Virus record (IMG/VR): IMGVR_UViG_2718217715_000004
Origin: a virus
Taxonomy: Duplodnaviria; Heunggongvirae; Uroviricota; Caudoviricetes
Length of the DNA: 21,792 nucleotides
Strand: one strand, 5' to 3'
Part shown: one piece after another, positions 9,464 through 21,792 of the stretch
How the letters are laid out: every line of letters begins with the position of its first letter
Numbering within the stretch: position 1 is the stretch's first letter
Translations under genes and position numbers: made by a program
Notes under the pieces: generated by a model
Told to the model about the DNA's origin: nothing
The model's input: only the letters and a program-made list of their open reading frames with translations
The model's database searches: none

Positions 9464-9990
9464 ATTGTGGGGCGACTGGCCACTCAACATCCGCTGCTAC
9501 TGTTGTATCAACACGATTCAACAATACCCGATATGTCTTCCATGCAGCCAGTAACGATGCCTCTTCCTCCGTCGCAATATCCAAATCTACGGCATCCTGA
9601 AGTGGCGCAATATGCTCACTGGCTACCTGCATCAGGCTGTTTTTTGTTTCTTCTGCCTCCCGTACCCGAAACAGTTTTTCTGCTTCTGCATCTTTCGCCC
9701 AGGATGTGCCGTTCCACTTCTGACACTCTCCATCCGGCGACAACCAGGTAACATTTTCCGGTAACGGACCGAGTTCAGAAATAAATAACGCGTCGCCGGA
9801 AGCCACGTCATAAACCGTTTTACCCCGATGATCTTCAACGAGATGCCACGATGCCTCATTACTGTTGAAAACAGCCACGAAGCCAGCCGGAATATCTGGC
9901 GGTGCAATATCGGTACTGTTTGCTGGCAGACCTGTATGAGGCGGAATGTATGCGTCACCTTCACCAATAAATTCATTAGTTCCGGCCAGC
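9462..9990 (-). pseudogene. tfa: Tail fibre assembly protein (lambdoid Tfa/TfaQ-like), 5' end removed by the IS insertion
   Basis: Minus-strand frame is open from the IS boundary: ...[61 protein letters not shown]...[12 protein letters not shown]...EWPVAPQ, matching remembered Tfa proteins; about 17 N-terminal codons are missing (ORF track shows only 9462-9878). Confidence 0.8.
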
Positions 9991-10044: not shown

Positions 10045-10371
10045 ATGACTAAAAATACTCGTTTTTCCCCCGAAGTCCGTCAGCGGGCGATTCGTATGGT
10101 TCTGGAAAGTCAGGATGAATATGACTCACAGTGGGCGGCAATTTGTTCCATTGCCCCAAAGATTGGCTGTACGCCGGAGACTCTGCGTGTCTGGGTTCGC
10201 CAGCATGAGCGGGATACCGGGGGCGGTGATGGTGGGCTCACCAGCGCTGAACGTCAGCGTCTGAAAGAGCTGGAACGTGAAAATCGTGAACTGCGCCGCA
10301 GTAACGATATCCTTCGCCAGGCTTCCGCTTATTTTGCGAAGGCGGAGTTCGACCGCCTCTGGAAAAAATGA
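10045..10371 (+). CDS. IS3-family transposase OrfA
   Basis: 108 aa [27 protein letters not shown]...; 3 substitutions relative to copy A. Confidence 0.9.
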
Positions 10372-11258
10372 TGCCACTGCTGGATAAGCTGCGTGAGCAG
10401 TACGGGGTCGGACCGGTATGCAGCGAACTGCATATTGCCCCGTCAACGTATTACCATTGTCAGCAACAGCGACATCATCCGGATAAACGCAGTGCCCGTG
10501 CGCAGCACGACGACTGGCTGAAGAGAGAGATACAGCGCGTATACGATGAAAATCATCAGGTGTACGGTGTGCGTAAAGTCTGGCGTCAGTTGTTACGGGA
10601 AGGAATCAGGGTGGCCAGATGTACAGTGGCACGTCTCATGGCGGTTATGGGACTTGCCGGTGTTCTCCGGGGTAAAAAGGTCCGTACGACCATCAGCCGG
10701 AAAGCCGTTGCCGCAGGCGACCGCGTAAACCGTCAGTTCGTGGCAGAACGACCTGACCAGCTGTGGGTGGCTGATTTTACTTACGTCAGCACATGGCAGG
10801 GCTTCGTCTATGTGGCGTTTATCATTGATGTGTTTGCCGGATACATCGTGGGGTGGCGGGTCTCATCGTCTATGGAAACGACATTCGTGCTGGATGCGCT
10901 GGAGCAGGCGTTGTGGGCCCGTCGTCCGTCTGGCACCATCCATCACAGCGATAAAGGCTCTCAGTATGTGTCACTGGCCTATACGGAGCGACTAAAAGAA
11001 GCCGGATTACTGGCATCAACAGGGAGTACAGGCGACTCGTATGACAACGCGATGGCTGAGAGCATCAATGGTCTTTACAAAGCGGAGGTAATACACCGTA
11101 AGAGCTGGAAAAACCGTGCAGAAGTGGAACTGGCCACACTAACGTGGGTGGACTGGTATAACAATCGACGATTGCTGGGAAGGCTGGGCCATACTCCTCC
11201 GGCAGAAGCAGAAAAAGCTTATTATGCTTCCATCGGAAACGATGATCTGGCAGCCTGA
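10368..11258 (+). CDS. IS3-family transposase OrfB (DDE), -1 frame relative to orfA
   Basis: 296 aa; overlaps orfA at the GGAAAAAATGATG window. Confidence 0.9.
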
Positions 11259-15962: not shown

Positions 15963-16193
15963 TTAATGGAGTTTGTTTTGCTGCTGGATGAGCTGTTGAA
16001 ACTCGTGCAGATCATCCGCCAGATAGCTGAAAACAGAGGCGGAATAAATGTTTGATAGTGCGTGGCTGCGCTCATGCAGCATATTGATGTGCATGATTTG
16101 CGCGACGCGTGATGCGCGGGAAAGTCTGCGGTTGATTTCAGTCTGGATGTGACGACGCTCCGCGATAGCGCGGTGCTGTTTGCGGTCTGCCAT
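15963..16193 (-). CDS. Hypothetical small basic protein (76 aa)
   Basis: ORF with SD AGAGG; preceded by a structured intergenic region. Confidence 0.45.
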   Translation of the reverse strand: MADRKQHRAIAERRHIQTEINRRLSRASRVAQIMHINMLHERSHALSNIYSASVFSYLADDLHEFQQLIQQQNKLH

Positions 16194-16372
16194 GGTGTGG
16201 CCTCTTTGCTCGGTGATAGAAATAACTCACCATCCAGAGTTGAGAATCTCGGGGTGGCGAGACGTACAGGGTTCTCAACACCGGAGAGCAAAGAATCCGG
16301 CCCGACCGAAGTCGGCCCCGTACGCCCCGCCATAATTCTGACGCGAAAAAGACGTGGCAATACAGTACGCAC

Positions 16373-16393
16373 AAAAAAACCGCTAGCGCGGTT
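16373..16393 (-). terminator. Rho-independent terminator on the minus strand
   Basis: Read on the minus strand: stem AACCGC / GCGGTT, loop GCTA, followed by T-run (GCGGTTTTTTT). Confidence 0.5.
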
Positions 16394-16464
16394 ATGCGCT
16401 TTGCTCTGTATCGGGTTGAGAATCCCGGCACCCGTTTTATGAGGTGCAGCGGAAATGTAACCTG

Positions 16465-18835: not shown

Positions 18836-19039
18836 TTAGCTGTTAGCCAAAGCGTCTTTTAACATCGCCACAAGGTTTACTTCAGGCTTTTCCATTTTGG
18901 CGCGTTTGGGGCGGATAATAATTCGACCGTCAGCCAACATCTTTTTGCATGTATTAAGAGGGATACCTGTTATCTCTGCATATTTCTGCAGGGATACATA
19001 GGGGGCATTCACATTGATATTGATGGTTATACCTGACAT
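18836..19039 (-). CDS. Cox/Apl-like small HTH protein (putative excisionase / early-promoter regulator)
   Basis: 67 aa; NAPYVSLQKYAEITGIPLNTCKKMLADGRIIIR resembles the P2 Cox region AIPYQEFAKLIGKSTGAVRRMIDKGKLPVI as remembered. Confidence 0.5.
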   Translation of the reverse strand: MSGITININVNAPYVSLQKYAEITGIPLNTCKKMLADGRIIIRPKRAKMEKPEVNLVAMLKDALANS

Positions 19040-19055
19040 CCCACTAGCCTCCTGA

Positions 19056-19262
19056 TCAGGAAGATTTGTTTTGTTCTTTCTGGGTTAGCTCTAGGCCGCG
19101 AAGGGAGATCATGCGCGCCATGTTAGAGGATGAGCGTTGTTCTTTAGCTGCCATTTCATCAATGACGGCTCGCTCCTCGAGGGACAGCCGAAGTGCCAGT
19201 CTTGGACCTGTGGCGGTGTTACGCGGAATGCGTGATCTGGTATCGTGAAGAACTTGTTTCAT
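19056..19262 (-). CDS. Ribbon-helix-helix (CopG/Arc-like) DNA-binding protein
   Basis: 68 aa; RLALRLSLEERAVIDEMAAKEQRSSSNMARMISLRG fits the RHH beta-strand/helix-turn-helix pattern; weak SD, so start or reality is uncertain. Confidence 0.4.
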   Translation of the reverse strand: MKQVLHDTRSRIPRNTATGPRLALRLSLEERAVIDEMAAKEQRSSSNMARMISLRGLELTQKEQNKSS

Positions 19263-19304
19263 AGTGGTATATTGTGATCATCTAATAGCTCGTGAAATCA
19301 TTTT

Positions 19305-19322
19305 GGTATCAAAAAAGATACC
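19305..19322. promoter_or_regulatory. Candidate operator: perfect inverted repeat GGTATC-N6-GATACC in the divergent-promoter region
   Basis: Read directly; an extra GGTAT half-site at 19266-19270; lies between the RHH/Cox early genes and the XRE repressor gene. Confidence 0.3.
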
Positions 19323-19337
19323 TGTCAAGGTTTTTGT

Positions 19338-19742
19338 ATGAAAAATGATATTGGTCGGCGGTTGCGTGAGGAAAGGGAAAGATTGGGACTTAGTCAAGTT
19401 GCCATGAGCGACATTGGTGGAGTCAAAAAGCTAACTCAGCTTAGATATGAGAAAGGAGATAGCTTTCCTGATGCTGCGTATTTGGCAGCGCTGTCTCGTT
19501 TTGGCCTTGATGTTCAGTATGTTGTGTTGGGAATTCACTCACCTGAAACTTATAACGATGATGAGCAGGAATTGATTACTCGCTTTCGAGCAGCTTCGTT
19601 AGATGTGAAAAACGCGGTGATTGGGGCTTTAAAAGGTGCGATCAGTGAAAAGGAAACTCAGCCATCAGGACGTGAGTTAAATATTTCTGGTGGTAATAAC
19701 CGTATCGCTGGTCGTGACTATAACGAAACTAAGGGTAGGTGA
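19338..19742 (+). CDS. XRE-family HTH protein, probable immunity repressor (P2 C / 186 CI analogue)
   Basis: 134 aa; RLREERERLGLSQVAMSDIGGVKKLTQLRYEKGDSFPDAAYLAAL is a classic Cro/C1-type HTH; divergent from the early operon and on the same strand as int. Confidence 0.7.
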   Translation: MKNDIGRRLREERERLGLSQVAMSDIGGVKKLTQLRYEKGDSFPDAAYLAALSRFGLDVQYVVLGIHSPETYNDDEQELITRFRAASLDVKNAVIGALKGAISEKETQPSGRELNISGGNNRIAGRDYNETKGR

Positions 19743-19757
19743 TAGTAGGGAGGTGAC

Positions 19758-20408
19758 ATGGCCGTCAACTCAAACGGTTCAAACAATCGCGTTGCTGGGC
19801 GTGATTTTCACGAAAAGAATATTCAGATAGAGCGATATGATGGTTCTCATACCGTCAATATCGCAATCCCTTCGAATAATGATGATGACGATCGCCCTTT
19901 GCTTAAGGCTCAGCGTAAGGAGCTAAATAGCTTGGTTGCTGCTATTGCAGAAGCTAGCAATACTGAAGCGTTTATTATTTGGCAAAAAGTACATGCGGAG
20001 ATTGGTGTAGCTGGTATTGATGATATGACAGTAAATCAATATAAAACAGCGGAGAGTTTTCTGCATGCAATGCTTGAGCGATGTAAAGATCATGATGCCT
20101 GTAAGGCTCTTGTAAGTTTATTACTACGTAACAGTGAAGACTGTGGACTTCGACAAAAACTTCTGCGGTATTGCCATATCAATTTCGGTACAGGACGTTT
20201 AAACGATCTTACTCGTTCTCAGTTACAGTCTGCATTGTCGTGGTTAGAGCAACAATCGGCATCAAGCCACATAGAGAGTTCGACCTTACCAGAAGTCCGA
20301 CTTCGTGCTTCAGAATTAATCCGACTTTATCCAAAAGAAATAATATTCTTTATCTGCGTAGGGGTTTTGGTAGGCGGTGTCATTTCTAGGGCGTTTTTTA
20401 ATTTGTAA
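19758..20408 (+). CDS. Hypothetical 216-aa protein with a C-terminal transmembrane anchor, in the lysogeny operon
   Basis: Strong SD GGGAGG; C-terminal hydrophobic helix IIFFICVGVLVGGVISRAFF; N-terminus shares a motif with the repressor C-terminus; AT-rich. Confidence 0.6.
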   Translation: MAVNSNGSNNRVAGRDFHEKNIQIERYDGSHTVNIAIPSNNDDDDRPLLKAQRKELNSLVAAIAEASNTEAFIIWQKVHAEIGVAGIDDMTVNQYKTAESFLHAMLERCKDHDACKALVSLLLRNSEDCGLRQKLLRYCHINFGTGRLNDLTRSQLQSALSWLEQQSASSHIESSTLPEVRLRASELIRLYPKEIIFFICVGVLVGGVISRAFFNL

Positions 20409-20437
20409 TCTTACTTGAGCTAAATTGAGGTAATGAT

Positions 20438-20785
20438 ATGAAAGTAAAAAAGGTTCAACTATTAGTTACTTTTTTATCTATGTTTTCTTTTTCCGCCGTC
20501 GCAATGCCTTTTAAAACTATTGAACGTGAGAGTTTCAATGGGGTATGGCCATTTAATACTGATGAGGTTCAATTACAGTGTCTTGATGGTAATCCTTATG
20601 TGATGAATTTTGACGATAATAAGTTATATGCACTTACAGGTTTGGCTCGAATAAAAGGTAAAACATTTGGTGCGTTACCGTTAGATAACAATAATCCATT
20701 TTGGCTAGATAATGATGCCGCCCCAGGGTTAAAAAAGAGTCTGGGGGATGTCACTAAGGCTGCATTTGATTTATGTGATAAGTAA
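20438..20785 (+). CDS. Secreted/periplasmic 115-aa protein, possibly YebY/DUF2511-like
   Basis: Signal peptide MKVKKVQLLVTFLSMFSFSAVA; two Cys (near WPFNTDEVQLQC and C-terminal DLC); similarity to YebY (WAFN.EEV.L.C..GN) is from memory only; SD GAGGT. Confidence 0.55.
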   Translation: MKVKKVQLLVTFLSMFSFSAVAMPFKTIERESFNGVWPFNTDEVQLQCLDGNPYVMNFDDNKLYALTGLARIKGKTFGALPLDNNNPFWLDNDAAPGLKKSLGDVTKAAFDLCDK

Positions 20786-20790
20786 CTAAA

Positions 20791-21792
20791 ATGTCGGTTC
20801 GTAAGATTCCATCAGGTAAATGGCTTTGTGAATGTTATCCCTACGGGGCATCGGGAAAACGCATTCGTAAACAGTTTGCGACAAAAAGTGAGGCGCTCTC
20901 TTATGAGCGCCGTTTAATGAATAGTAGAGTTGGAGACGAGTTTCAAGATGGTTCTGGTCCTCGTCTTTCTGAGTTGATTGCTCGTTGGTTTGAGATGTAC
21001 GGTAAAACCTTGTCCTCTGGTGCAGAGCGCAAAGTCAAACTTGAGGCGATTTGTTCCAGGCTGGGAGATCCATTTGCTTCTCAGTTTGACAAAAATATGT
21101 TTGCTACTTATCGGGAAAGAAGGCTATCAGGAGAATGGAATCCCAAGGGGAAGAAAAAACTTAGTGAAGCAACCGTTAATCGCGAGCAGTCATATCTACA
21201 TGCTGTTTTTGCCGAACTGAAGCGCCTTGGGGAGTGGTCTGGTGAAAACCCCCTGACTGGTATTCGCAAGTTTCGTGAGGAAGAAAAGGAACTGGCGTTT
21301 CTGTATGTAGATGAGATTGAACGCCTTCTGATTGCGTGTGATGAGTCACGGAATAAAGATTTGGGGGTTGTTGTCCGTATTGGGCTTGCGACTGGTGCTC
21401 GGTGGAGTGAAGCAGAAGGATTAAAGCAATCTCAAGTACTGCCCGGTCGAATCACATTTGTTAAAACTAAAGGAAAGAAGAACCGCACTGTACCGATTTC
21501 ACCTCAATTGCAAGCTATGCTTCCTAAAAAACGAGGAGCGCTATTTTCACCATGTTATGAGGCTTTTGACGCTGCAATTAAGAGAGCGAAGATCGAGCTT
21601 CCTGATGGGCAATTAACTCATGTGCTACGTCACACGTTTGCCAGTCATTTTATGATGCGGGGTGGAAATATTCTTGTGTTGCAAAAAATACTGGGGCATA
21701 GCGATATAAAAATGACTATGCGTTATGCGCATTTTGCTCCAGGTCATTTAGAGGCTGCTGTTGAATTGAACCCTTTTGACAATAGAGGGTAA
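20791..21792 (+). CDS. int: P2-type tyrosine integrase
   Basis: 333 aa; GKRIRKQF, LSEL, TGARWSEAEGL, TFVKTKGKKNRTVPIS, LTHVLRHTFASHFMMRGGNILVLQKILGHSDIKMTMRYAHFAP match P2 Int blocks as remembered; stop at the last base of the window. Confidence 0.9.
   Translation: MSVRKIPSGKWLCECYPYGASGKRIRKQFATKSEALSYERRLMNSRVGDEFQDGSGPRLSELIARWFEMYGKTLSSGAERKVKLEAICSRLGDPFASQFDKNMFATYRERRLSGEWNPKGKKKLSEATVNREQSYLHAVFAELKRLGEWSGENPLTGIRKFREEEKELAFLYVDEIERLLIACDESRNKDLGVVVRIGLATGARWSEAEGLKQSQVLPGRITFVKTKGKKNRTVPISPQLQAMLPKKRGALFSPCYEAFDAAIKRAKIELPDGQLTHVLRHTFASHFMMRGGNILVLQKILGHSDIKMTMRYAHFAPGHLEAAVELNPFDNRG

Follow-up and report, generated by a model that had tools for sequence, protein, structure and literature searches.

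Amyloid-signalling pairs, such as fungal HET-S/NWD2, the BASS systems and Bab/Agp of E. coli (BASS11), are among the closest described systems to the gene pair reported here. In these systems, two adjacent genes encode products that share a short motif; the first product carries it at its C-terminus and the second at its N-terminus. Located outside the folded domains, the motif combines Gly, Asn or Gln with hydrophobic residues, falls into many families and is matched within each pair, and one of the two partners is directed to the membrane. Bab/Agp provides a prophage-borne case in E. coli, with the C-terminal/N-terminal motif in adjacent genes. Flk (Fluke/RflH), which regulates the flagellar type III secretion switch in Salmonella and E. 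coli, contains a helical Flk_N domain and a cytoplasm-facing C-terminal anchor. Membrane sequestration of a transcription regulator is exemplified by the repressor Mlc, which is captured by PtsG. The lactococcal sie2009 and the Streptococcus thermophilus TP-J34 ltp are lysogen-expressed exclusion genes between repressor and integrase; together with lambda rexAB and the K139-like cI-int hotspot, they represent repressor operons next to int with envelope-located products and a variable slot. In a group of P2-related (K139-like) phages, the repressor-integrase interval is a recognised hotspot of cargo and defence genes (Rousset et al., preprint).

Here we analysed a 21,792-nt stretch of phage DNA (the window), in which two genes, ORF216 and ORF115, lie between the repressor and the integrase. 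The repressor and ORF216 resemble the amyloid-signalling pairs in gene adjacency, in the terminal position, many families and pair-wise matching of the motif, and in having one membrane-directed partner, and several of the motif types may also resemble them in setting and composition. They differ in that the protein with the C-terminal motif is a DNA-binding repressor rather than a pore-forming, TIR or CHAT effector, and the protein with the N-terminal motif is a small tail-anchored Flk_N protein rather than an NLR/STAND or TPR-GreAB-PIN sensor; the known systems have NLR/Bell-type partners, to which neither protein belongs. In addition, the commonest motif type here is charged (NRxAGRDYxE). 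ORF216 shares the helical domain and the anchor with Flk, but Flk has about 330 residues with a Pro-rich N-terminus (MQPxSGP...) and lacks any terminal motif, whereas the 216-residue ORF216 begins with an AGRD motif; Flk is chromosomal without a repressor neighbour, and ORF216 belongs to a prophage immunity operon. The locus has the position, the envelope-located products and the variable slot of the rexAB, sie2009, ltp and K139-like loci, but neither ORF216 nor ORF115 shows sequence or profile similarity to their products, and ORF216 constantly accompanies the repressor rather than being variable cargo. As with Mlc and PtsG, the activity of a soluble repressor could be set by inner-membrane capture through a short surface, although the proteins are unrelated, and the Mlc/PtsG system has no matching-motif pair and serves a host metabolic circuit rather than a lysogeny switch.

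Organization of the repressor-integrase interval

The window derives from a prophage of E. coli O157:H7, and 521 of 5,426 complete E. coli genomes (about 10%) contain this stretch. The prophage repressor (positions 19338–19742, + strand; Pfam HTH_31/HTH_3, PHROG 8) is followed by ORF216 (19758–20408, +), ORF115 (20438–20785, +) and the final gene of the operon, a P2-type tyrosine integrase (20791–21792, +; Int_N and Phage_integrase), which adjoins yecA in the RefSeq annotation of the identical region. An earlier note on this DNA had recognised two extra, AT-rich genes with strong ribosome-binding sites in this interval. Both were recovered with exactly the same boundaries and strand; GGGAGG precedes ORF216 and GAGG precedes ORF115, each 6 nt upstream of the ATG, and the GC contents are 0.412 and 0.353, respectively, versus 0.506 for the whole window. 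The intergenic gaps from the repressor through ORF216 and ORF115 to the integrase are 15, 29 and 5 nt, which makes co-transcription of ORF216 and ORF115 with the repressor plausible. No terminator-like site was found on the + strand from the repressor to the end of the integrase gene. The operon logic of the earlier note, with all genes on the repressor strand, agrees with these observations. The divergent early operon starts upstream on the − strand (18836–19262) with an Arc-like gene (19056–19262, −; PHROG 3431, 4e-27) and a Cox-like gene (18836–19039, −; PHROG 575, 1e-27), preceded by a promoter-like site (19328–19300, −; TTGACA-17-CAAAAT). The prophage contains IS insertions and may be defective, so whether the window's own copy functions is uncertain.

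Domain architecture of the repressor and ORF216

The repressor is a 134-residue protein composed of an XRE/Cro-C1 HTH (aa 1–64), a helical hairpin (aa 74–105) and a disordered tail (aa 106–134), and the S24 peptidase domain is absent from it. The closest solved structure is the N-terminal domain of P22 C2. In the AlphaFold model, the pLDDT is about 90 in the HTH and below 50 at residues 106–134. The tail contains the motif LNISGGNNRIAGRDYNE (aa 114–130; 19677–19727, +), which is followed by the basic stub TKGR.

ORF216 consists of a disordered N-terminal tail, a helical, cytoplasmic Flk_N domain (aa 47–172; 19896–20273, +) and a C-terminal membrane anchor. It matches PHROG 5825 at 8.5e-103, and its homologues carry PF27202 (Flk_N); matches of ORF216 to zf-P11 and ELYS in a local copy of Pfam were below threshold and were rejected as spurious. 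The N-terminal tail contains the motif VNSNGSNNRVAGRDFHE (aa 3–19; 19764–19814, +), and the conserved tail extends to about aa 39 (19874). Residues 1–45 have pLDDT values below 50 in the AlphaFold model, so that the motifs of both proteins are located in tails outside the folded domains. Among 20 homologues with 58–84% identity, the residues Ser5, Gly7, Asn10, Arg11, Gly14, Arg15, Asp16 and Glu19 are invariant. The anchor (Ile195–Phe214; 20340–20399, +) is hydrophobic in sequence and falls within a modelled helix at residues 192–215, in agreement with the single C-terminal anchor noticed earlier, and only about two residues extend beyond it. In most homologues the anchor lies within 0–6 residues of the C-terminus, with Gly202 and Gly206 invariant in the homologue alignment, and a C-terminal hydrophobic peak is found in nearly all phage-type members of the Flk_N family.

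ORF115 is a distant YebY homologue

As described in PMC8689200, proteins of the YebY family possess a signal peptide, a conserved Trp and two Cys residues that form a stabilising disulfide, and YebY-type genes in a prophage operon context are mentioned in passing in that study. ORF115, which the earlier note had read as a signal-peptide protein with two cysteines and a possible DUF2511/YebY relative, fits this description. It encodes a 115-residue secreted protein with a signal peptide at aa 1–22 (20438–20503) of the n-h-AVA|M cleavage pattern, scores 28.4 bits against Pfam DUF2511 (PF10709; cut-off 21) and matches PHROG 2950, and its homologues, which form only 18 clusters, are annotated as PF10709. 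Alignment to E. coli YebY (7N0J, E = 0.003) places Trp37, Cys48 and Cys113 at the corresponding positions. By these features, ORF115 is predicted to be periplasmic and to form a Cys48–Cys113 disulfide. The sequence similarity to YebY is only distant, and ORF115 is part of a prophage operon, whereas YebY belongs to the copper-linked yobA-yebZ-yebY operon.

Conservation of gene order

The earlier note had proposed testing whether the two genes co-occur next to repressors in other P2-like prophages; constant linkage to the repressor proved true for one gene of the two. Comparison of 100 related P2-like loci revealed that a homologue of ORF216 directly follows the repressor in every locus, usually 9 bp apart, whereas DUF2511 was found only in the window's lineage and in four others (L011, L012, L067 and L091). 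Mu-like transposable phages from Pectobacterium, Gilliamella and Pseudomonas also have the repressor-Flk_N order. HMMs served to detect Flk_N ORFs. The distant Flk_N proteins (alignment A2) were too diverse for building search patterns; pattern scans returned no locus with P0287 and one locus with P0292. One subtype of the Flk_N partner has an extra internal transmembrane segment and an external domain of about 110 residues, giving a transducer-like architecture, and a Pfam search of the longer Flk_N partners yielded nothing informative.

The gene after the Flk_N partner varies among the P2-like loci. Most Flk_N loci are without YebY and have unrelated genes in the slot before the integrase, and in Erwinia the YebY gene is located on the other side of the Flk_N gene, upstream of it. 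The cargo families of the slot comprise YebY, BRCT+WYL, DUF8087, TerB/BRCT-like and small membrane proteins, with weak matches to WYL or PDC-S48 profiles of PADLOC-DB v2 in some of the alternative cargo. Neither ORF216 nor ORF115 matched any PADLOC-DB v2 profile at E≤1, consistent with the earlier impression that the pair is not a named defence architecture. Based on the linkage in all 100 loci, the presence of DUF2511 in few lineages, and a motif common to ORF216 and the repressor that ORF115 does not carry, ORF216 is assigned to the immunity module and ORF115 to the optional cargo of a swappable slot, which the repressor/ORF216 pair does not require. In all eight lineages examined of the ORF115 clade, YebY sits in an operon that also holds repressor-Flk_N, and for this reason ORF115 may have some functional link with the pair.

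A shared motif co-varies between the two tails

Comparison of the repressor C-tail with the ORF216 N-tail revealed that both carry the same motif of about 17–25 residues. The match between the two tails of the window scores 62, versus 19.8±4.0 for shuffled sequences (p≤5e-5), and sites of the form R[IVL][AS]GRD[YF] occur only twice in the six frames of the window, once in each tail. In the repressor homologues, the C-tail motif is nearly invariant although the protein bodies are only 35–60% identical. Between phage lineages the motif varies, and within each pair it matches. Analysis of 10 motif types, which are phylogenetically not fully independent, gave a mean score of 42.4 for cognate and 23.8 for non-cognate combinations (permutation p≈4e-5), with the cognate partner ranked first for 6–7 of the 10. 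Several types fit a pattern of Gly, Asn or Gln with alternating hydrophobic residues (QxFHGxVGQxxAGxIxN), and a Pectobacterium type reads QxFNG..GQF..IIN; the AGRD-type motif of the window is rich in the charged residues Arg, Asp and Glu and is less typical of amyloid cores.

The presence of the motif follows the pairing of the genes. It is absent from true Flk proteins, whose genes are not next to a repressor, and a tail-less homologue of the repressor, found in a similar prophage, is accompanied by no Flk_N gene. In one Gilliamella phage, the partner is a multi-transmembrane protein other than Flk_N that still bears a matching N-terminal motif, which argues for pairing between the motifs themselves rather than between motif and Flk_N domain. 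The rule does not hold throughout, as the repressor of one subtype (L135/L136) is without a Gly/Asn-rich tail. Among 787 identical residues in 75 tail pairs, codon identity is 40% compared with 38% expected; the similarity of the tails is thus kept at the protein level, and gene conversion is rejected on this test. Our literature searches yielded no earlier description of a phage repressor sharing a motif with a membrane protein encoded next to it.

Discussion

These results suggest an undescribed membrane-linked control of lysogeny through the repressor and ORF216. Amyloid-signalling pairs, Bab/Agp among them, have as their signature a motif that matches between the C-terminus of one product and the N-terminus of the next, and on this analogy we infer that direct tail-to-tail coupling ties the activity of the repressor to a membrane protein. 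We consider it probable that the interval holds two separate things, namely a membrane-anchored partner of the repressor (ORF216), with the two tails coupled directly, and an optional cargo gene (ORF115). Physical contact between the tails would be made by beta-strand or cross-beta pairing and would couple the availability of the repressor to the inner-membrane protein. As for the trigger and the direction of signalling, a membrane-level event would most likely cause ORF216 to capture or template the repressor tail, leaving less free repressor and providing an SOS-independent route of induction for repressors without a peptidase. A stronger version is prion-like templating, in which the membrane-anchored Flk_N protein senses an envelope or membrane event and turns the C-terminal motif of the repressor into a cross-beta assembly, so that the operators are freed and SOS-independent induction or a decision between lysis and lysogeny is triggered, in a widespread set of P2-like and Mu-like temperate phages of Gammaproteobacteria. 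We put this version forward tentatively, as possible rather than expected.

Alternatively, a common third factor, for example an antirepressor of the phage or a protease of the host, could use both tails as docking sites or degrons, and ORF216 would serve as a membrane-bound decoy or competitor, buffering the repressor against that factor. Small antirepressors, including P4 epsilon and 186 Tum, are known to target P2-family repressors, and the window's prophage has a gene (15963–16193) for a Derepression-family protein that is controlled by a C4/isrK-type RNA; a decoy would require identical motifs on two proteins, and the disordered tails resemble linear docking motifs. The co-variation, however, would demand that P2-like and Mu-like phages alike have a lineage-specific third factor evolving just as fast, and no such factor was seen conserved beside the pair in the loci of either kind examined. 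The use of one motif at both an N- and a C-terminus is also unusual for protease degrons, and we regard a common third factor as unlikely.

The earlier note had instead viewed ORF216 and ORF115 as a two-gene envelope module, expressed from the repressor operon as cargo for superinfection exclusion or abortive infection. Its view of the interval as a cargo site agrees with the hotspot in K139-like phages and with the variability of the stretch from ORF216 to the integrase. The two products are both envelope-located, the genes are AT-rich as acquired cargo tends to be, the ORF115-clade YebY keeps to Flk_N-containing operons in the eight lineages, and the external domain of one Flk_N subtype is a fused one. 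As one conserved unit, however, the tail-anchored protein and its periplasmic neighbour did not hold up, since YebY is missing from most Flk_N loci, where unrelated genes occupy the slot, and stands upstream of Flk_N in Erwinia, and it is with the repressor tail that Flk_N co-varies. Moreover, the roughly two periplasmic residues of ORF216 offer little surface for a periplasmic partner, and there was no PADLOC match. Such a module is therefore improbable.

That ORF216 is a Flk-like lysogenic-conversion factor, docking on the type III export gate of the flagellum or injectisome and altering substrate switching, with the repressor motif being incidental, appears quite improbable. The Flk_N family is common in prophages of Klebsiella, a host that is usually non-flagellate, and ORF216 aligns with NCBIfam Flk (PRK10715; aa 37–166 versus Flk 20–149) at 58.2 bits, far under the equivalog cut-off of 353. 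The Flk_N homology and the tail-anchored topology are as in Flk, and two-hybrid assays have shown an interaction of Flk with the FlhA cytoplasmic domain (PMC13344023), but a Flk-like role leaves the obligatory linkage to the repressor, the co-varying motif and the motif-keeping non-Flk_N partner unexplained. Finally, although the motif copies are 60–90 nt apart and the repressor and ORF216 share a frame in the window, it is highly improbable that the similarity of the tails is a functionless genomic by-product, whether of recent duplication or gene conversion (at odds with the codon test and with the near-invariance of the motif beside diverged protein bodies), a split HTH-TM fusion vestige, or a read-through or frameshift fusion, which is rejected on account of three consecutive stops (TGA TAG TAG) between the genes in the window and by spacing and frame that vary by lineage, including 4-nt overlaps.

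For annotation, genes between repressor and integrase should not be presumed to be defence cargo. The true variable slot runs from the partner gene to the integrase, and its cargo families merit screening for defence or conversion roles. Should the contact be cross-beta templating, the reach of amyloid signalling would grow from effectors of immune cell death to the control of a DNA-binding protein, and the pair would be the first amyloid-signalling switch to act on a transcription factor, as well as the first one in the lysogeny circuit of a phage. Its recurrence in Mu-like phages points to a regulatory cassette that is portable. Prophages of the P2 family are frequent in Enterobacterales, and for their small, peptidase-less repressors, a conserved membrane partner with a co-evolving motif would offer a concrete route from the envelope to the lysogeny switch.

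Operon organization and conserved gene order

Two genes, ORF216 (19758-20408, + strand, 216 aa) and ORF115 (20438-20785, +, 115 aa), lie between the gene for a 134-aa HTH protein matching XRE-type repressor profiles (19338-19742, +) and int, which encodes a 333-aa integrase with Int_N and Phage_integrase domains (20791-21792, +). The ORF listing and domain matches thus bear out the gene positions, strand and repressor-int location proposed in an earlier note. The strong ribosome-binding sites described there were recovered by direct reading of the sequence (GGGAGG for ORF216 and GAGG for ORF115, each 6 nt upstream of the start), and both genes are indeed AT-rich, with GC contents of 0.412 and 0.353 versus 0.506 for the window. 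The gaps between repressor, ORF216, ORF115 and int are 15, 29 and 5 nt, which makes a single repressor-to-int transcript plausible, and no terminator-like sites were found on the + strand from the repressor through the end of int. The repressor and ORF216 share one reading frame, with 19740-19757 consisting of three consecutive stops (TGA TAG TAG) and GGAGGTGAC; this frame is not conserved, since in other lineages the two genes are 9 bp apart or overlap by 4 nt.

The early operon divergent from the repressor begins with Arc-like and Cox-like genes. At 19056-19262 (-), a 68-aa ORF matches PHROG 3431 'Arc-like repressor' (E = 4e-27), where RefSeq instead has a 45-aa + strand 'hypothetical protein' (19111-19248); given this match, the RefSeq strand call is probably wrong and the Arc-like gene lies on the - strand. 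The repressor/early-operon intergenic region contains a direct repeat, TCATAGTGGTAT / TCATTTTGGTAT (19259-19270 and 19298-19309, 39 bp apart), and an imperfect inverted repeat of 19 nt (19297-19349), which are candidate operators.

ORF216 matches PHROG 5825 (unknown function), and its residues 37-166 match the N-terminal part of Flk, a regulator of flagella. Homologues of ORF216 are assigned to PF27202 'Flk_N', a recent addition to Pfam; the family as a whole is small, comprising 136 clusters (50% identity) among 1.84 billion proteins. ORF216 was rejected as Flk itself, with 58 bits against a cut-off of 353 and a different length, N-terminus and genomic context. Genomic context was compared at 100 loci, drawn from Klebsiella, other E. 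coli, Erwinia, nine species-representative genomes and 80 viral contigs. In 100/100 the repressor is followed by a Flk_N/TM gene, then by one or more variable genes and a P2-type integrase; the repressor-Flk_N gap is mostly 9 bp and the Flk_N-to-int distance 302-1850 bp. Judged by gene order, ORF216 belongs with the repressor and not with ORF115. In two loci (L062/L063), the repressors are 93% identical to that of the window, yet the Flk_N partners are only 72% identical and YebY is missing, indicating recombination inside the operon with the shared motif retained.

ORF115 and the variable slot

The suggestion that ORF115 might be DUF2511/YebY-like, with two cysteines, held up. Its match to Pfam DUF2511 scores 28.4 bits (cut-off 21), and alignment to E. 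coli YebY (7N0J) places Trp37, Cys48 and Cys113 at matching positions, identifying ORF115 as a YebY/DUF2511-family protein, predicted to be periplasmic, outside the family's canonical context. YebY is a periplasmic protein with a conserved Trp, a stabilising disulfide and a fold like that of the lantibiotic-binding protein MlbQ (PMC8689200). The same study noted in passing that some Enterobacteriaceae YebY genes are flanked by genes for a XerD-like recombinase and a phage CI-type HTH protein. Close homologues of ORF115 form only 18 clusters among 5.8 billion proteins.

YebY occupies the slot between the Flk_N gene and int in the window's own lineage and in three other lineages (L012, L067, L091), and lies between repressor and Flk_N in Erwinia (L011). 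Other slots encode a ~290-aa BRCT+WYL protein, DUF8087, TerB/BRCT-like proteins and small coiled-coil proteins with a C-terminal anchor, among others. All eight YebY lineages examined from the YebY side (8/8) have it in a repressor/Flk_N/int operon, while other loci carry other slot genes; YebY is therefore a long-standing yet dispensable occupant of the pre-int slot. Loci with alternative cargo include L003-L006, L015 and L065 (about 5647-6513 in L003), L094 (6551-7447) and L007 (5840-6097). The TerB/BRCT-like protein (~295 aa) has a weak PADLOC PDC-S48 match, the DUF8087 protein is acidic, and the small coiled-coil proteins are XhlA-like.

In K139-like phages, the interval between repressor and int has been described as a defence hotspot, and the variable slot here fits this idea. 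The earlier proposal that this interval is a cargo position thus stands for the slot, and fails for ORF216, whose homologues follow the repressor in every locus surveyed. The remark that the architecture is not a named defence system agrees with PADLOC, in which neither ORF216 nor ORF115 matched a known defence family.

The repressor and ORF216 carry matching terminal motifs

The repressor ends in ...LNISGGNNRIAGRDYNETKGR and ORF216 begins with MAVNSNGSNNRVAGRDFHEKNIQIE. Local alignment of the two tails scores 62, versus 19.8±4.0 for shuffled sequences (maximum 47 in 20,000; p≤5e-5), and the pattern R[IVL][AS]GRD[YF] occurs at only two sites in the six frames of the window, the repressor C-tail and the ORF216 N-tail. 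Residues S5, G7, N10, R11, G14, R15, D16 and E19 are invariant in 20 ORF216 homologues (58-84% identity). The bodies of the partner repressors share only 35-60% identity, yet nearly all of these proteins terminate in [IV]x[IV]SGxGNR[IV]AGRD[YF]NExKK.

More distant repressor homologues bear other G/N/Q-rich tails and come from Mu-like transposable phages that carry a ner-like gene, rve transposase, MuB-like ATPase, holin and transglycosylase; here too a Flk_N/TM gene lies directly 3' of the repressor. These and other distant partners each begin with the motif of their own repressor, as in Pectobacterium (repressor C-tail QIFNGDISGQFAGNQIINN, partner N-tail QEFNGTAQGQFSSRDIINI), Gilliamella (NNTIRGEGQIAGGNIYTT, DNTAEQIAGRDIYNIT), Pseudomonas (GQQFNGPVGTVTSGDVVNH, NQQFHDRVHQVAAGDIKNF) and two further viral groups (QVIHGDVLGNVIKGNVTMG, QTVNGDVGNVVSGDVTINN; QTFHGSVGQSVAGNVTNKSGVTFNVG, QDFHGDVGQAAAGDINNYGVSISL). 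When 10 motif types, which are not fully independent, were each sampled once, the mean tail score was 42.4 for cognate and 23.8 for non-cognate pairs (permutation p = 4e-5), and the cognate partner ranked top for 6/10 repressor tails and 7/10 N-tails. Gene conversion or recent duplication as the source of the match was ruled out, because the same codon is used at 40% of 787 identical residues (75 unique pairs), near the 38% expected from codon usage.

The motif is present in almost all phage-type family members (~185-225 aa, tail-anchored) and absent from true Flk proteins (≥300 aa, MQPxSGP... N-termini). A tail-less repressor homologue (119 aa) occurs in a P2-like prophage that is similar in other respects but has no Flk_N gene; there, two genes from the usual cargo families separate the repressor from int. 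One Gilliamella phage encodes a different, multi-TM partner whose N-terminus still carries the matching motif, which argues that motif recognises motif and not the Flk_N domain. The exception is L135/L136 (1066-2225), where a 155-aa repressor lacks the G/N-rich tail and ends in a helix, and the Flk_N partner has an N-terminal helical extension (EDEKLEKIKARL...) followed by a motif-like IKVKGNNANINFG; these loci may use a different coupling mode. In one Gilliamella phage copy, the Flk_N partner is broken into two ORFs (L104, 4405-4985). In a Symbiopectobacterium endosymbiont (L017, 6001-6580), the partner is N-terminally truncated and the repressor motif is degraded to AGNNF, so partner and motif may decay together.

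In the structural models, ORF216 residues 1-45 and repressor residues 106-134 have pLDDT <50, predicting that both motif copies are flexible appendages. The remainder of ORF216 comprises a helical domain (47-172, pLDDT ~85) and a terminal helix (192-215), in line with the C-terminal membrane anchor noted previously. The repressor consists of an HTH (1-64, pLDDT ~90) that most resembles the N-terminal domain of P22 C2, and a helical hairpin (74-105), with no peptidase domain in structure comparison. Structure searches found no informative solved relative of the Flk_N domain. One 327-aa partner subtype, comprising the motif, Flk_N, an internal TM and a ~110-aa external domain, looks like a transmembrane transducer.

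Prophage surroundings

The stretch matches a prophage of E. coli O157:H7 and relatives at 100% identity and was found in 521/5426 complete E. coli genomes, where RefSeq labels the genes 'transcriptional regulator', 'hypothetical protein', 'DUF2511 domain-containing protein' and 'phage integrase', adjoining yecA. Escherichia phage 520873 (Peduoviridae, Xuanwuvirus) is the only deposited phage with it. In that record (NC_049344.1, 4480-5520), ORF216 and ORF115 each match as three unannotated tblastn pieces and the integrase is divided into two CDSs, which suggests frameshift errors or decay.

From pgsA and tRNA-Gly/Cys/Leu at one end, the window extends across a P2-type replication/early region as far as int. 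The prophage lies between tRNA-Leu (after pgsA, tRNA-Gly and tRNA-Cys; 1-1002) and yecA, with int beside yecA, whereas int adjoins pgsA/uvrC in related Klebsiella, Citrobacter and Erwinia prophages (e.g. L003, 8091-10529); which end of the tRNA cluster region is used therefore appears to differ. Two ALIL pseudoknots, frameshift signals of the IS3 family (2591-2707, -; 10326-10442, +), and an IS009 RNA match (9499-9697, -) indicate IS3-family insertions inside the prophage, which may therefore be defective. Rfam C4 antisense RNA (78.5 bits; 16250-16337, -) and isrK (63 bits; 16373-16447, -) lie just upstream of a Derepression-family gene on the same strand (15963-16193, 76 aa; PF25738, E = 1e-7). 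Together they look like an antirepressor unit under RNA control, of the P1 immI kind, within a P2-family prophage.

Possible coupling of the repressor to the membrane

Fungal and bacterial amyloid-signalling pairs are discovered by matching C-terminal and N-terminal motifs in adjacent gene products, outside folded domains, the motifs differing between lineages and matching within pairs. Experiments have demonstrated such signalling for the Bab/Agp pair of E. coli, which is prophage-borne and which the repressor/ORF216 pair resembles in having adjacent genes with a C-terminal copy of the motif in one product and an N-terminal copy in the other. Because the two tails show this arrangement, we propose that they bind directly, via beta-strand or cross-beta pairing, which would link the repressor to a protein anchored in the membrane. 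On this analogy, direct motif-mediated coupling is the probable function of ORF216; true amyloid-like templating between the tails is unlikely. As far as the literature was searched, with incomplete coverage, no prior description of a motif common to a phage repressor and a membrane protein encoded next to it was found; the YebY context had been noted once before (PMC8689200).

Less probably, ORF216 could be a decoy for an antirepressor, a reading prompted by the Derepression-family gene that the prophage encodes under C4/isrK-type RNAs, or it could act on host type III secretion in the manner of Flk. The earlier view of ORF216 and ORF115 as a two-gene exclusion module is also unlikely, since they are not a conserved pair beside the repressor: the slot gene varies and the repressor-Flk_N order is fixed.

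If the tails do couple, ORF216, with its N-terminal motif, would by analogy be the sensor or template and the repressor, with its C-terminal motif, the target. Some event at the membrane would then cause the repressor to be captured or inactivated, giving SOS-independent derepression, and control of induction or of the lysis-lysogeny decision is, tentatively, a possible output.
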